From an uncultured Gemmatimonadales bacterium (GTDB taxonomy: Bacteria > Gemmatimonadota > Gemmatimonadetes > Gemmatimonadales > Gemmatimonadaceae), in NCBI GenBank assembly GCA_963793305.1, contig CAWBZV010000005.1, positions 384,001 to 448,000 on the forward strand: DNA of 64,000 nucleotides, written 5' to 3'. The notes beneath the pieces were generated by a model. That model saw only the letters and a program-made list of their open reading frames with translations. It had not been told where the DNA came from and made no database searches. A program made the translations under genes and the position numbers. Below, piece after piece: positions 47,232 to 53,017 of the stretch (position 1 is its first letter; the number at the start of each line of letters is the position of its first letter).

Positions 47232-48122
47232 ATGCTGGATGAGATTCGATCGTTCATCGTGCTCGCCGAGTCCGGCTCGTTGCGGCGCGCGTCCGAGCGG
47301 CTGTTCCTGACGCCGTCGGCGCTCACGCGGCAGATTCAGCGCCTGGAGCACGCGCTCGGGACTTCGCTCCTCGATCGCCGCGTCAAGCCGGCGCGGATCA
47401 CCCGTGCGGGTCGGGCGGTGCTCGATCGCGGACGGCACGTGTTGCGGGTCATGGATGATCTCAAGGCCACGGCGTCGCCGAACGCCGAGCCGACCGGCAC
47501 GTTCCGATTGGGGATCGCCCACGCGCTCGCGCAGGCCAGTCTCGTCGGCGCGATTCAGAGATTGACGAATCGGTTCAGCCAACTGCGGCCGGTGATCACG
47601 ACGGATCTCACGCGGACGCTCCTCGAGCAGGTGCGGACGGGCGCCCTCGACGCGGCGCTGACGCTCATGCCCGCCAGCGGGGGCGCGCCGAGCGACGTGG
47701 ACGCCGCCGTCGTGGCCACGGAACGGCTCGTGCTGATCCGCTCGCGCGACCGCGAACGCCGGTTGCCCGGGCCCGACCTCGACGCGCCGTGGGTGGTCAA
47801 TCCACTGGGGTGCCTCATTCGGCAGGCACTCGAAGTGAAGCTGCGCGAAATGGGATTACCGTTCCGCGTCGCCGCCGAGATCCACAACGTCGAGATGCAG
47901 CTGTCGCTGGTCGCCGGTGGATTGGGGCTCGGGGTCGTGCCGGCCCGCCTCCTCGCCACGCATCCGCGGCGCCGGCATCTGGAGCAGCTCACGCGGACCG
48001 GCGTGACGCTGTCGGCCGCGATCGTCTTCGTGCGCGCCGGTCACCTCGGACAGCTCGACATCGCAGCCGAGTTCTTCCAGGACGCGCTCACGGAACACTT
48101 CGCGCCTAAGGGGACGAAATGA
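47232..48122 (+). CDS. LysR family transcriptional regulator
   Basis: GSLRRASERLFLTPSALTRQIQRLE..LG..L.DR; divergent from qor. Confidence 0.9.
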   Translation: MLDEIRSFIVLAESGSLRRASERLFLTPSALTRQIQRLEHALGTSLLDRRVKPARITRAGRAVLDRGRHVLRVMDDLKATASPNAEPTGTFRLGIAHALAQASLVGAIQRLTNRFSQLRPVITTDLTRTLLEQVRTGALDAALTLMPASGGAPSDVDAAVVATERLVLIRSRDRERRLPGPDLDAPWVVNPLGCLIRQALEVKLREMGLPFRVAAEIHNVEMQLSLVAGGLGLGVVPARLLATHPRRRHLEQLTRTGVTLSAAIVFVRAGHLGQLDIAAEFFQDALTEHFAPKGTK

Positions 48123-48733
48123 GGAAGATTATTGCGACCGCGTTTGTTTCGCTCGACGGTGTCATGCAAGGTCCTGGCGGCCCAGCAGAAGATCCGAGCG
48201 GCGGGTTCGGTCTCGGGGGATGGTCCGCGCAATACTCTGATGAAAAATCCGGCGCCGCTGTCATGCGGATGGTGGGCACCATCGCCAAGCCAAATGACGT
48301 TCTGCTCGGGCGCAAGACGTACGACATCTGGACCGGCCATTGGCCGCATGTTCCTGCGAACGATCCCATTGGACCGGTGTTCACCAAGGCCAACAAGTAT
48401 GTGATGACCGGCGGCACGAGCGCATTGGCGTGGGCCAACAGCCACCAGCTGCACAACATTGACGAATTGAAGAACGTCAAAACTGGCAACGGGGCTGACA
48501 TTGTTCTGTGGGGCAGTTCGACGCTCTATCCGCAGCTGTTGGAGGCCAATCTCATCGACCGCCTGCTGCTGCTGACATTTCCCGTGATGCTCGGAAAGGG
48601 GAAAAAGCTCTTCGGCAACACCACGCATCCCGTCGCCATGAAGCTTTTGGCGAGTGAGGTAAACTCGACCGGCGTCATCATCGCCACGTACGAGTCGCCC
48701 AGAGCCCCGACGTTCTGGAACGCGTCCACGTAA
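48119..48733 (+). CDS. dihydrofolate reductase / RibD C-terminal family protein
   Basis: FVSLDGVMQGPG, LLGRKTY, GSSTL, PV.LGKGKKLF. Confidence 0.9.
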   Translation: MRKIIATAFVSLDGVMQGPGGPAEDPSGGFGLGGWSAQYSDEKSGAAVMRMVGTIAKPNDVLLGRKTYDIWTGHWPHVPANDPIGPVFTKANKYVMTGGTSALAWANSHQLHNIDELKNVKTGNGADIVLWGSSTLYPQLLEANLIDRLLLLTFPVMLGKGKKLFGNTTHPVAMKLLASEVNSTGVIIATYESPRAPTFWNAST

Positions 48734-48841
48734 ACCTGGTCACTCCGACGTCCACATCACGAAGGTGCGGACGCGGCATGCTGGGCTGATCGTCTCGAGC
48801 CATCCGCCAGTCGCGCGATAGGTGAGCAGCCAATGGAGGAA

Positions 48842-48915
48842 TAGGCCGAGGTGGAGTTGAACCACCGACCTCACGCTTATAAGGCGTGCGCTCTAACCAC
48901 CTGAGCTACCGGCCC
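48842..48915 (-). tRNA. tRNA-Ile (anticodon UAU), CCA not encoded
   Basis: Reverse complement GGGCCGG TAGCTCAGGTGGTTAGAGC G CACGC CT-TAT-AA GCGTG AGGTC GGTGG TTCAACT CCACC TCGGCCT A: full cloverleaf, A73 discriminator, anticodon at 48881-48879. Confidence 0.93.
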
Positions 48916-48983
48916 CGAAGCAATCGGCCCCCAAGCGAATCGATCGACAATGCGACGCACGCTCGGGCATCCTTCTGGGATTA

Positions 48984-49458
48984 GCGCCTGATCCCGCGCT
49001 CTTTCGTCACTTCATGGAGTACGTGCGTAGCCTGTCGGGCAGTGTGTACGGTCGCCGCATGTACGAGGTCATGCGGTATTGGGACGAAGACCTTCCGGAC
49101 TGGGACGCGCAGGACCACGAGTTCGCGGGCGCTGTGGCGGAACCAACCGAAGTGGGTCGTGTCGCGCTCGTTGAAGTCAGTCGGTCCCAACGCCACACTC
49201 GTCGAGGATGACATCGAGGCGGTGATACGTGGGCTGAAGGCTCAGCTCGCTGGGGAGATTGCAGTTGGTGGACCAGACCTGGCGCGAAGCCTGGCCGACC
49301 TTGGTCTTATCGATGAGTATCGACTCTACATCCGGCCCTATGTGCTTGGTCATAGCAAGCCGTTCTTCGCGGGCCCCCGGCCCCCGCTCCGTCTCGTGGC
49401 CAGCGATCGACTCAGCGAGGACACGATTCGACTGACGTATGTTCCTGCCGCTTTGTAA
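48984..49458 (+). pseudogene. 5'-truncated, frameshifted DHFR/RibD-C family gene
   Basis: APDPALFRHF...YGRRMYEVMRYW, frameshift at GGG 49127-49129, then W...PKWVVSRSL...GLIDEYRL...P.VLG..KPFF; the N-terminal SLDG motif is missing. Confidence 0.75.
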
Positions 49459-50003
49459 GTCTGCTCCAAACCATAACACGCGCCCGCCTCTTGACCAGTC
49501 GGCGCTTGCCAAGCACGCACGCCTGCTTCCGCAGCGTTGAGCGTGGCGGATCTGACCTTCTCCATGTGCATGCGCTCACCGTAGGAACGTCTACCTTAAG
49601 CATCGAACAGTTGGACGTGGCGTGGTCGGGAAGCGCCGAAGATCATGAGCGCAGGTGAAGCAAGTGCTATGGCGACCTAGCGCCCGCCGATGATCACCCC
49701 GGCACCTGGCGGCGCGACGATTTATCGCGGCGGTGTACTGGGCCATCGCGGTGGCAGCGGCAGGCCAGCCGACAAAGTTCGGCGGGCTCTCGTGGGGCTC
49801 GCGAGCGCTCACGTAGCCACGACGCCGCAGCTCGCATCGAGAGAAACACTCCAGTCATCATCCTGCCGGAACTCGGGACCGAGCGGACAACGCGGACATG
49901 GCAAGATTTCACGGGTCTAGTCCAATGCATGTGTCACCCGATGGCAGCAAGATCTTGATCGATCTCTAGTGCGGTATTCACTGTGCGCTCACGAATTGAG
50001 GCG

Positions 50004-51086
50004 ATGAAGCGCGTAACCCTTGGCGCCTTTCTCCTGGCGGCAAATCCGGCCGTCCGGAAACCACAGATTGTTGGCGCTCAGGAGCCTGCGCGCGTACAGG
50101 CGGACCCCAGACAGCTGATCGACCATATCACAAAGGCTGTGCTCGCGGACAACACGGTTTGGCTCTTGGATATCAACGGGCGACTCTCGCATGTCCCATT
50201 GGATTCGATGCGCCTCGTCCCGGATACCGCACTTGGCACCGTTCTCGATTTCGGGGTCGACCGTAAGAACCAAATCGTCGCGGTCGTGGAGCAGTCACGC
50301 GTTGCCGTCGTTTCGCGACGTGATGCGCGCGGGCAGTGGCATGTCGATGCACAACTGCCGCTGCGCAATACGACGGCAACCGTGATAACGATCGTGTCCG
50401 CTAGCGACCCCATCATGTTCTTGACGGCAGAAGCCATCTACACCGAGCAGGGGAGGTCTTGGCAGCGCCGCCAATTGGTCCCTGCGCTCGATTTGCATTC
50501 CGTGCAACGATCGGTCGCCGTGACATTGGACGGCAGCGTATACGTTGGCACCAACGTCGGCGAATGGGGCGGCACGCTGTGGCGCGTGAGTGGAGGCTTG
50601 GCCGGCGATCGCGCGCAGTCGGTGGCAACGGCGAGAATCGCCAGATCATTGGCACTTCCCGTGACCGGCATTGCCCAGGACCCGGAGCATTCTGCCTGTG
50701 TGATCGCGTCTATGGGGCTACTGCACATGTTAGAACGCGGCGGCATCGTCAGGGTTTGCGGCGACTCGGCCACGGTGCTCTTTGAGCAACCGTGCCCCCG
50801 CGCGGCGGGTATCGATACGGTCAAAGGCGCGCGGCTCGCCCGCTCCTGTCGGTTGGCAGTGTTCGCCATCGCGCCCTCTCATGGAGGCTTCTGGGCCGCA
50901 ACATCTCGCGAGCTGGTGCGATTCCACGATGACGGGATAGCTGAGCGATTGCCGATGCCGAGTTTCAGGAACATGGGCGGAATACCCCTCTCGGTGGCCC
51001 GTCCAGGACTGGTGATCGTTCGGACCAACATCAACTGGAGCGTATCGCTCAGTGGACCGACGCCGCTCATTCTCTCGGAGCCATAG
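50004..51086 (+). CDS. secreted hypothetical protein (beta-propeller-like)
   Basis: Long ORF, N-terminal hydrophobic stretch, G.N.GEWGG.L motif. Confidence 0.6.
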   Translation: MKRVTLGAFLLAANPAVRKPQIVGAQEPARVQADPRQLIDHITKAVLADNTVWLLDINGRLSHVPLDSMRLVPDTALGTVLDFGVDRKNQIVAVVEQSRVAVVSRRDARGQWHVDAQLPLRNTTATVITIVSASDPIMFLTAEAIYTEQGRSWQRRQLVPALDLHSVQRSVAVTLDGSVYVGTNVGEWGGTLWRVSGGLAGDRAQSVATARIARSLALPVTGIAQDPEHSACVIASMGLLHMLERGGIVRVCGDSATVLFEQPCPRAAGIDTVKGARLARSCRLAVFAIAPSHGGFWAATSRELVRFHDDGIAERLPMPSFRNMGGIPLSVARPGLVIVRTNINWSVSLSGPTPLILSEP

Positions 51087-51496
51087 CTTGGCTGTCGCTC
51101 CGTTCCGCGATGGGACTCCGATCGAGATCGTACCCAGTCCGGCCGATCGCCTGCGTGCGAGTCACGGCGGCGACACTTCGGCGCGGCGCGGTCCGTCACA
51201 CCGGGCGGTTGCCCGTCGACTAACCAGGGCGGCCTCCGCCGCCTGTCGACTGCCGCTACCAGCGATTAGGCGGTGAGCTCGAATGCGTGATGGCGCACGT
51301 GTTTGCTTGCGTGTCGATCTCGTGCGCTCGCGCATTGGCCACGATGCATGGTTCATGCGACCCGATCGTCTGCTGTCTTGAACAAATGCAACATGCCGCG
51401 TCTTACGTCGACACAGTAGGCCGGTTGTGCATGATGGCGTGTTGTGACGTCACGCGACCTTGCGCCGCCTAGCGCTGACGAATATTGATGTTCCCT

Positions 51497-51680
51497 ATGC
51501 GTGCCATGCTCATTCTCGTTTGTGCTCGCCGCCGCCTGCGTGGGTCATGCCACGCCTCGGTTGGACCCCGCGGTCTACTCGAAGCTCTGCTCACCGACGA
51601 CCGATGCTGAAACCGCAAAGCGCGGCGGTTGCGTACTGAACGACCACGTCACCTCGAAGCCTGAATGGGTGCTTCCCTAG
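51497..51680 (+). CDS. small 60-aa lipoprotein, 1-nt frameshift in T-run near 51520 (not in ORF track)
   Basis: Removing one T gives MRAMLILVVLAAACVGHATPRLDPAVYSKLCSPTTDAETAKRGGCVLNDHVTSKPEWVLP*. Confidence 0.5.
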
Positions 51681-51850
51681 TCTCGCAATAGCCCCGGTGA
51701 TACTTCAGTAGGGGTAAGTTCCGAGAGGATTCGGTCGGCCTCGTCTCGCCCGGTACGGTGGTCCGTACGCGGCGGTGGACATTTGGTGCCAAATCCGACA
51801 TGGGCGTTGCCGCTCTCGCGACCTTGACCGGACATGGTAGGTTTGCGATC

Positions 51851-53017
51851 ATGCGCCTAAGCGCTATTGTCGCCGCGTTCGCCATATCGCTGCTGGCGGC
51901 GCCGCTCCGCGCACAGTCGGCCCAGGCCCCGCCAGGGTGGCCGACCTTCACGCGCCTGTTCGACGATGCCACCGATCACGACAGCATTGTCGGCGCCAGC
52001 ATCGTGCTCGTCCGCGGCGGCCGCGTCGTGGCGCACCACGAACATGGCTGGGCCGACCGCGCTCGCCACCTTCCCGTGACGGAGCGTACGATCTTCCACT
52101 ACGGCTCTGTCACCAAGACATTGACCGCCATCGCCATCATGCAGCTGCGCGATCGTCACCGGCTGACGTTGGACGATCGCGTGACGAGCTACGTTCCCGA
52201 GCTGCGGCTCGTTCACGACCCGTACGGTTCTATAGATAGCGTGACGATTCGCATGCTCCTCTCCCACGCGGCGGGTTTCCAAAACCCCACCTGGCCCTAC
52301 ACCACCGGCGCAACCTGGGAGCCCTTCGAGCCCACGACCTGGAACCAGCTCGTGGCGATGATGCCCTATCAGGAGCTCTCGTTCCCGCCTGGCTCGCGCT
52401 ACAGCTACTCGAACCCGGGGTTCATTTACCTGGGCCGCATCATCGAGCAGTTGAGCGGCGATCCTTGGGAGACCTACATCCAGAAGAACCTCTTCTCGCC
52501 ACTCGGTCTCTCGCACAGCTACTTCGGCGTCACTCCGTACTACCTCGCCGCGGACCGATCCCACAACTACACGCGCGTCCGCGACTCCTCCGGCCATGAG
52601 TTCGTCCGCGACAACGGCGCGGATTTCGACCCCGGCATCACGATTCCCAATGGCGGTTGGAACGCCCCCCTGTCCGACCTTGCCGCCTATCTCGCCTTTC
52701 TCACGGGCGCCACACCAGACAGCGTGGTCCTGGCACGATCCAGCCTGACCGAGATGTGGCGCGCACGCTATCGGACGTCCAATGACACAGTCGTGGTGCC
52801 GGATTCGATCGGCCTCTCGTTCTTCGTGCTTCACCGCGGACAGGATACGTTCATCGGCCACACGGGAAGCCAAGCCGGATTCCTGGCCTTCCTGTACCTT
52901 AATCCCGCCAGTGGTGCGGCCGTTGTCGCGACGTTCAACACGGCGAGCGAGATTCCAACGTCCACGCCGTCGGCCTTCCGGCGCATTCGGGAGGCCGCCC
53001 TCACCTTGATTCAATAG
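51851..53017 (+). CDS. serine hydrolase, beta-lactamase family
   Basis: SVTK, LLSH..G, YSYSN, GHTG; signal peptide. Confidence 0.92.
   Translation: MRLSAIVAAFAISLLAAPLRAQSAQAPPGWPTFTRLFDDATDHDSIVGASIVLVRGGRVVAHHEHGWADRARHLPVTERTIFHYGSVTKTLTAIAIMQLRDRHRLTLDDRVTSYVPELRLVHDPYGSIDSVTIRMLLSHAAGFQNPTWPYTTGATWEPFEPTTWNQLVAMMPYQELSFPPGSRYSYSNPGFIYLGRIIEQLSGDPWETYIQKNLFSPLGLSHSYFGVTPYYLAADRSHNYTRVRDSSGHEFVRDNGADFDPGITIPNGGWNAPLSDLAAYLAFLTGATPDSVVLARSSLTEMWRARYRTSNDTVVVPDSIGLSFFVLHRGQDTFIGHTGSQAGFLAFLYLNPASGAAVVATFNTASEIPTSTPSAFRRIREAALTLIQ

Follow-up and report, generated by a model that had tools for sequence, protein, structure and literature searches.

A tRNA-Ile(UAU) gene on a GAU-type body in a Gemmatimonadales bacterium that keeps a TilS homologue: a probable second reader of AUA

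The locus considered here is a transfer RNA (tRNA) gene of 74 nt, read as tRNA-Ile with the anticodon UAU, which lies on the minus strand at 48842..48915 of a stretch of 64,000 nt (the window; G000:C5:384001-448000) from the genome of an uncultured Gemmatimonadales bacterium (G000; 5.7 Mb in 26 contigs, 92% complete, 5% contamination). It stands between a gene with a RibD_C domain and a truncated paralog of that gene, within a genus-variable segment. Among the sense codons, AUA alone makes nearly all bacteria reliant on an essential enzyme of tRNA modification, TilS, and escape from this dependence is an old question in the study of genetic-code evolution. Most natural escapes known so far come from reduced or uncultured lineages in which TilS has already been lost. 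In the genome described here a TilS homologue is retained, and the UAU gene is a copy of the lineage's own tRNA-Ile(GAU) gene that would serve as an additional reader of AUA.

The sole tRNA gene called by ARAGORN in the window is this tRNA-Ile (anticodon tat, minus strand), and the Rfam model RF00005 covers exactly these coordinates over its full length (model 1-71 of 71), scoring 66.7 bits (E 2.6e-12) where the gathering score is 29 and the GAU copies reach 70.6-71.3 bits. These matches agree with a preliminary description of this DNA, made from the letters alone, which had reported an intact tRNA-Ile cloverleaf with a UAU anticodon. The acceptor stem has seven base pairs, including the wobbles G1.U72 and G7.U66, the D stem has four, the anticodon stem CACGC/GCGTG carries the loop C-U-UAU-A-A, and the T stem GGTGG/CCACC is followed by an acceptor end with A as the discriminator; CCA is not encoded, as in most other listed tRNA genes of the genome. 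The truncated or mispaired cloverleaf of a pseudogene or att fragment is not seen in the gene, given its full-length Rfam match and the 73 of 74 positions kept in the metagenome contig L182, to which we return below. The anticodon occupies 48879..48881 (minus strand), so that the wobble base U34 corresponds to position 48881, which reads A on the plus strand, as the preliminary description had it.

The preliminary description had also cautioned that a single base error was possible, and the rival explanation that a sequencing or assembly error at 48881 conceals a true GAU anticodon was weighed against contigs from public sequencing runs, which were compared with positions 48200-49600 of the window. 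In run X1, which is possibly the source sample of the assembly and therefore only partly independent, a contig of 1108 nt (depth 8.7) covers 48200-49065 with 0 differences, and in run X2, a second sample of the same study, a contig of 239 nt (depth 3.4) covers 48768-49006, also with 0 differences. Each of these contigs spans the tRNA together with its locus-specific flanks, and each gives A at 48881, not C or G, and thus UAU; the contigs of run X3 do not reach the tRNA in the window. What speaks for an error is that GAU-type contigs dominate the metagenome depth at this position, C being read at 132/141 in X1, 303/306 in X2 and 244/244 in X5 (from three to four contigs per run), and that there is at least one probable indel error nearby in the assembly. 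The latter lies at 49127, where an otherwise identical X1 contig lacks one base (depth 14.1 of 18.6) and the RibD_C paralog changes frame, probably through an assembly indel and not a true frameshift. The two C-type contigs shown in detail overlap the tRNA body only, with five mismatches each, and the C-type contigs are read as GAU tRNAs of other loci or organisms. Against an error stand the flank-bearing UAU contigs of the two samples, the orthologous gene on the independent metagenome contig L182, which is also TAT, and the five further positions that distinguish the UAU gene from the genome's own GAU gene. The worry about the assembly is a fair one, but it does not affect base 48881; an error there is scarcely credible, and the reality of the gene and its anticodon can be taken as practically certain.

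With regard to origin, the UAU gene is identical to the genome's own tRNA-Ile(GAU) gene at 68 of 74 positions (six differences), and it differs at seven positions from the GAU gene that is common in the family. The body common in the family and order reads GGGCCTG...CACGC...GGTAG/CTACC...CAGGCCC, the GAU body of G000 and of G001, the closest relative searched, reads GGGCCGG...CTCGC...GGAGG/CCTCC...TCGGCCC, and the UAU body reads GGGCCGG...CACGC...GGTGG/CCACC...TCGGCCT. With the family-common gene as the reference, five derived positions (G6, a G-C pair of the T stem, and U66/C67) are common to the UAU gene and the genome's own GAU gene. The UAU gene also retains an ancestral A29-U41 pair and an ancestral T-stem pair, both of which have been changed in the GAU gene of G000 and G001 by compensatory double substitutions, and since these pairs were changed in the GAU gene of both genomes, the duplication predates the separation of G000 and G001. 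The UAU copy has two lineage-specific changes (G34U and C72U), and the essential GAU copy has four. Among G000 (on C2), G001, G003 and G005 the GAU loci are mutually syntenic, whereas the UAU locus shares only the tRNA with them. The simplest history would be a duplication of tRNA-Ile(GAU) in the ancestor of G000 and G001. The earlier proposal of a GAU-derived duplicate with G34U is thus borne out by the 68/74 identity, the five shared derived positions and the separate, non-syntenic locus.

A trace of the same paralog is found in G001, where a truncated tRNA-Ile remnant lies 5.9 kb from the same break at a LysR gene. The remnant, which stops immediately ahead of U33, comprises positions 2-32 (31/31 identical) and has G6 and A29 as in the paralog. 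About 50 nt upstream of it (G001:C94; L166 10151-10284) lies an apparent 3' end of a tRNA-like or transfer-messenger RNA-like gene (T arm GCGGGTTCAAATCCCGC), which suggests that the remnant and this upstream end mark a junction of integrated elements.

The preliminary description had attached importance to the UAU gene standing alone and not in a ribosomal RNA (rRNA) spacer. It does stand alone, but this carries no weight, because the normal GAU gene (C2:481800-481873) is solitary too and no tRNA is listed downstream of the 16S gene. The single 16S rRNA gene of the genome (G000:C11:71737-73766) is preceded by tRNA-Pro(tgg), tRNA-Arg(tct) and tRNA-Lys(ctt), no tRNA-Ile or tRNA-Ala was listed by ARAGORN downstream of it on the 141-kb contig C11, and the rRNA spacer seems to be without tRNAs.

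The evidence for retention comes from metagenomes. An exact 28-mer of the anticodon arm, scanned against 241 million metagenome records, gave two matches (L182 and L183), and the same 28-mer gave 0 matches in a viral contig collection. L182 is a contig of 3.5 kb with the same adjacency of RibD_C gene and tRNA, its first 555 nt being 88% identical to the RibD_C gene of the window, and it represents the orthologous locus of a diverged relative. Its tRNA is identical at 73 of 74 positions, with the UAU anticodon, U72 and both paralog-type stems kept, and the sole difference turns the G7.U66 wobble into an A7-U66 pair. At a divergence of 11.9%, as measured on the neighbouring gene, at most one change in 74 nt would have a probability of about 1e-3 by our own arithmetic. 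This conservation of the tRNA in L182, far above that of its surroundings, is the principal argument for purifying selection on the UAU gene. The syntenic tRNA of this relative thus has UAU and not GAU or CAU, while G001 holds the truncated remnant. When positions 800-1600 of L182 were compared with runs X3, X6, X8 and X9, no contig with the L182 flanks was found, only two pieces of tRNA body of 32-34 nt in X9. A full-length pattern with up to three mismatches and N at position 34 gave 0 matches in 300 other genomes of the order; the acceptor and T stems therefore vary between genera, and this result is uninformative on UAU.

The second match, L183 (1180-1256 of ERZ1292632...832; 33 kb, GC 0.57), holds a tRNA(UAU) gene that shares the GAU-type anticodon arm, differs in its acceptor stem, encodes its CCA and adjoins a small HTH_3 (Cro/C1-type) gene. 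It is from an unrelated organism and represents a second, independent UAU on a GAU-type arm.

Around the tRNA, the RibD_C-domain gene that is its conserved neighbour lies at 48119..48733 on the plus strand (PF01872, 63.1 bits; 88% over 555 nt to L182 1-555). Between it and the tRNA, at 48766..48830 on the minus strand, is a remnant of the 5' end of a small open reading frame (ORF; about 106 amino acids) of unknown family, which is 91% identical to L182 918-983 and 86% identical to C2:478402-478458. This small ORF, for which no Pfam match was found, is complete immediately downstream of the tRNA in L182 and is also present in the island beside tRNA-Ile(GAU) on C2, L182 845-1152 being 78% identical to C2:478320-478627. 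On the other side, the upstream flank of the tRNA (48916..48988, minus strand) has no recognisable promoter and reaches to a second RibD_C paralog at 49042..49458 on the plus strand, which is 5'-truncated at the start of the tRNA segment; it matches Pfam profile positions 49-195 of 197 only, and its homology to the paralogs of relatives starts at about 48989-48993. All of these features belong to a genus-variable segment (48107..52980) in which synteny with G001, G003 and G004 is broken: it ends at 48106, the end of the LysR gene, and resumes near 52981. The segment contains the RibD_C gene, the tRNA, the 5'-truncated RibD_C paralog, an ORF of unknown function and a beta-lactamase-family gene. 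Direct or inverted repeats bounding it were limited to short, chance-like matches, and no integrase or phage gene was detected by Pfam near the tRNA, in the C2 islands, in L182 or in L183.

About 7 and about 17 kb downstream of the normal GAU gene (G000:C2:464599-481873; L177 1600-18874), the 3' part of tRNA-Ile(GAU), from the anticodon stem to the 3' end, recurs as two direct repeats of 45 nt, which look like the att scars of two tandem islands. These islands hold two CAP12/Pycsar-type TIR-domain genes and pieces of a MacB/FtsX-like permease, with no recognisable integrase. Similar fragments of 48-51 nt are found in G003 and G005 at 10-15 kb from their GAU genes. The neighbourhood abounds in traces of integration at tRNA genes.

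Such traces bring to mind the possibility that the UAU tRNA is cargo of a mobile element, in which case its near-identity in G000 and L182 would reflect recent transfer and not selection, and any function would serve the element. This scenario could draw on the att-like repeats at the C2 locus, on the homology between the remnant downstream of the UAU gene and the small ORF of the island beside tRNA-Ile(GAU), on a fragment in L182 of a tRNA-Pro(GGG) region that is repeated in G000, and on the variability of the segment within the genus. It is nevertheless improbable: integrase and recombinase domains were not found in the segment or in the C2 islands, the 28-mer is absent from the viral contigs, and the tRNA body carries derived states of the lineage's own GAU gene. 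Moreover, G000 and L182 have the chromosomal neighbour RibD_C in common (88%) and the G001 remnant belongs to the same LysR break, in keeping with vertical inheritance of a single locus.

Whether a UAU tRNA is the only reader of AUA depends on the state of the canonical pathway, for which TilS, an Ile2-type tRNA(CAU) and tRNA-Ile(GAU) were looked for genome-wide and all found. The ARAGORN set of the genome includes one tRNA-Ile gat gene (C2:481800-481873), the one tat gene and four tRNA(cat) genes. A TilS homologue is encoded on C14 (match 67983-68501) by an open frame of 301 amino acids with an SGGTDS PP-loop; it scores 128.5-130.1 bits with TIGR02432 against a cut-off of 93.6, and the full-length E. 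coli-type TilS model gives 68 bits against a cut-off of 606. The tRNA(CAU) at C5:1143143-1143216 is identical to E. coli ileX at 62 of 74 positions versus 53 of 74 to metT, an assignment as ileX-like that rests on likeness to annotated E. coli genes and not on a dedicated Ile2 covariance model. This gene is conserved in relatives and is preceded by the motif TTGACC-N17-TAACCT. Its best E. coli BLAST place per record was an annotated tRNA-Arg, which reflects likeness of the acceptor stem and is uninformative. Of the other tRNA(cat) genes, that at C2:862173 is initiator-like in its C1xU72 mismatch and in the three G-C pairs of its anticodon stem, and that at C2:869527 is identical to E. coli metT at 59 of 75 positions versus 57 to ileX. 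The remaining one, at C4:17138-17214, has an encoded CCA and a UU-CAU-AA loop on an anticodon stem that closes with an A.C mismatch; 54 of its positions are identical to each of E. coli ileX and metT, and it may be borne on an element.

Relatives without any UAU gene have the same set, and judged from its components the canonical lysidine route looks intact in this genome. The presence of the TilS homologue, the ileX-like tRNA(CAU) and the tRNA-Ile(GAU) implies that the UAU tRNA could at most read AUA in parallel with the lysidine route and would be redundant with it. The preliminary description had proposed AUA decoding that is independent of TilS; a parallel reader of this kind is likely, but replacement of the lysidine route is not, as the TilS homologue and the ileX-like tRNA(CAU) have been kept. 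The contrary proposal, that the UAU tRNA is the sole AUA reader in a cell with a defunct lysidine route, might appeal to the shortness of the TilS homologue (301 amino acids) and to its exceeding the cut-off only on the model of the N-terminal domain. That domain is, however, above a curated cut-off, with its PP-loop motif intact and its frame open, and the ileX-like tRNA(CAU) is intact, conserved and equipped with a promoter-like motif; as the same set occurs in relatives that have no UAU gene, a sole reader is very improbable. The demand for an AUA reader can be gauged from codon use, ATA being rare yet spread over many genes: in a crude gene set made up of 2224 long ORFs, GC-rich at third codon positions, ATA accounts for 1716 of 949,278 codons (1.81 per 1000, and 3.75% of Ile codons) and is present in 1121 of the 2224.

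The second partner that would be needed is the isoleucyl-tRNA synthetase (IleRS), of which the genome has a single gene, on C14 (1054 amino acids; TIGR00392, 846 bits). The protein aligns over its whole length to the 1032-residue IleRS2 chains of Priestia megaterium (8c8w, 8c8v and 8c9d; 868-882 bits), and to the type-1 chains 8c9f and 1ffy only as far as about residue 800 (371 and 333 bits), leaving the zinc-binding C-terminus of the latter unmatched. By these alignments the IleRS is of type 2, and a test of the zinc-domain positions W905/R865 was thus inapplicable. In the P. megaterium enzyme the pocket for G34 is formed by Q961, R964, K965 and L969 (PMC13752280), which align to Q, R, K and L in G000 (973, 976, 977 and 981 by our own count). 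G001 has the same base-34 pocket motif, and G007 and G025 retain its Q, R and K. The terms 'G34U' and 'G34A' are absent from the main text of PMC13752280.

Taken together, the most likely reading is that the UAU tRNA functions as a second reader of AUA which needs no TilS and duplicates the lysidine route; we consider this somewhat more probable than not. On this proposal the gene would be transcribed, the type-2 IleRS would charge its product with isoleucine, and U34, probably unmodified as in the Bacillus subtilis G34U suppressor, would pair with the A of AUA and weakly with the G of AUG. A cell with two redundant AUA readers would then correspond to the 'transition state' that Taniguchi et al. 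envisaged for the turnover of AUA decoding.

A considerable number of observations weigh against a working second reader. With the canonical route intact there is no evident need for a UAU tRNA, and its retention is seen only in G000 and L182: no other UAU gene was found among the 40 close relatives of the genus, family and order (1/41 genomes, G000 alone) or in a phylum sample of 400 genomes (1/401, 148 genera, G000 alone), tallies that include one unpublished genome, G012, without a match. The paralog is truncated in G001 and is therefore dispensable there, and in G000 the gene sits among gene fragments in a variable, rearranged segment, with its first acceptor pair weakened by C72U. As to expression, neither a sigma-70-like promoter nor a terminator was found for the gene, no TANNNT was seen by eye within 90 nt upstream, the 45 nt upstream are only about 60% identical between G000 and L182 (counted from the alignment), and the 20 public runs in which part of the locus occurs include no recorded RNA run. 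As to charging, no pocket change specific to the UAU carrier was found in the IleRS by comparison with G001, G007 and G025, and the IleRS2 of P. megaterium has been reported to read anticodon variants more stringently than IleRS1 (PMC13752280).

Many of the same points are claimed by the main rival, which holds that the gene is a silent or near-neutral relic, a redundant GAU duplicate stranded in a rearranging, island-rich segment, where it took up G34U and C72U and has little or no transcription and no decoding role. The lack of promoter and terminator, the position between a truncated RibD_C gene and a 65-nt ORF remnant, the truncation in G001, the uniqueness among 40 close relatives and 400 genomes of the phylum, the intact canonical AUA route and the unchanged IleRS pocket are all in its favour. 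Against a relic stands L182, which keeps 73 of 74 positions including UAU against 88% in the neighbouring gene and about 60% in the upstream flank, and in which the single change restores a Watson-Crick pair. It would also have accumulated only two lineage-specific changes since a duplication older than the G000-G001 split, and its Rfam score is close to that of the working GAU genes. The want of a promoter is weak evidence, because the essential GAU gene is also without the strict motif: TTGNNN-N16-18-TANNNT stands upstream of 16 of 35 lead tRNA genes, among them the ileX-like gene, and is missing from the other 19, the UAU gene as well as the GAU gene being without it. The relic is accordingly regarded as unlikely, although it is a more serious contender than transfer by an element.

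A second reader of AUA made from a GAU gene has a precedent in the laboratory. In B. subtilis, IleRS charges a tRNA1-Ile converted from GAT to TAT, in which U34 carries no modification and which binds strongly to AUA but weakly to AUG (Kohrer et al. 2014, PMC3919564). Like the tilS-deletion suppressor of that work (JJS80/EDJ958, PMC3919564), the present gene is a tRNA-Ile1(GAU) copy whose GAT has become TAT while one or more GAU genes remain in the genome. It is unlike it in that the suppressor arose in the laboratory under loss of TilS, whereas here the change is natural, TilS is intact and at least two diverged lineages carry it; furthermore, the B. subtilis IleRS is of type 1 with an Arg at the site of wobble contact (PMC3919564), while that of G000 is of type 2.

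Coexistence of the two routes has likewise been catalogued. A TAT gene together with tilS has been listed for Streptomyces scabiei, Treponema primitia, Chitinophaga pinensis, Ferrimonas balearica, Clostridium lentocellum, Lactobacillus casei and Cyanothece PCC 7424 (PMC3575796), and Taniguchi et al. (2013) read this coexistence as redundant LAU and UAU decoding of AUA, that is, as a transition state (PMC3575796). G000, with its TAT gene, tilS and CAT genes, resembles this group. The model in PMC3575796, however, derives the UAU gene from a CAT duplicate by a C-to-T change, whereas the body of the G000 gene is of GAU type, and the searchable supplementary file of that paper gives 0 matches for 'Gemmatimon'. 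Mycoplasma mobile, which has a gene-encoded UAU anticodon for AUA as G000 does, is without tilS and tRNA-Ile(CAU) and has a type-1 IleRS with Arg865 in its zinc-binding domain (PMC3575796), in contrast to G000, which keeps a tilS homologue and an ileX-like tRNA(CAU) and has an IleRS2 without the zinc-binding domain. Closer in the latter respect are Bifidobacterium and Neorickettsia, which are among the TAT-gene species of Table S1 in PMC3575796 and have a eukaryote-type IleRS and no tilS homologue; G000 shares with them a type-2 (eukaryote-like) IleRS with a UAU tRNA, but unlike them it has tilS.

In tRNADB-CE, TAT genes have been recorded for 19 bacterial species (PMC4013482), and a pattern scan of one genome per species gave at least 120 matches, of which 116 of the 120 listed are called tRNA-Ile(tat) by ARAGORN, mostly in Patescibacteria. 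None of these 116 has an anticodon arm within two mismatches of the G000 gene; they have the same anticodon but represent older, separate UAU lineages, whereas the G000 gene keeps a near-universal GAU-type arm. The tRNA-Ile(UAU) kind is thus already known and common in uncultured groups, and its coexistence with tilS has been catalogued since 2013. What sets this case apart is that the gene arose naturally from the GAU type, that a large free-living genome has kept it together with an intact TilS route, and that the IleRS is of type 2. A natural UAU gene derived from GAU was not found in the literature searched, which does not establish its absence from print. For the fuller claim, that a tRNA-Ile1(GAU) paralog has been recruited in nature to read AUA and kept by vertical descent in a soil lineage that is free-living and TilS-positive and has a type-2 IleRS, we see the case as evenly poised.

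If the gene works as proposed, it would capture an earlier step of the escape from TilS, in a large genome of free-living type, where a spare GAU gene has been converted by one transversion beside an intact lysidine route and the synthetase pocket shows no visible change. It would be a wild counterpart of the B. subtilis tilS suppressor and a living example of the transition state with two redundant AUA readers, and would lend natural support to the laboratory finding that GAT-to-TAT in tRNA1-Ile is tolerated. It would also allow two questions to be addressed: by what means AUG is avoided when U34 is unmodified on a GAU-type body, and by what means U34 is accepted by an IleRS2 whose G34 pocket has not changed. 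The practical weight is modest, since both the mechanism and the class of coexistence have been published, only metagenomes attest the organism, and expression of the gene is presumed.

Two further observations concern the tRNA complement of the genome. A tRNA-Lys(UUU) was not found by ARAGORN in G000, though AAA accounts for 5.65 per 1000 codons. Of the Lys genes called, only that for CUU (C11:71925) is convincing, a call of 70 nt on C2, 'Lys(ctt)', being apparently spurious, so that either the tRNA set of this 92%-complete genome is incomplete or its usage of CUU and UUU is unusual. Finally, three 87-nt ARAGORN calls of 'tRNA-Ala(cgc)', at C3:451773, C3:636248 and C3:709201, share a conserved motif upstream (GTGTCGCAGCA...) and may be tRNA-like domains inside a longer RNA.

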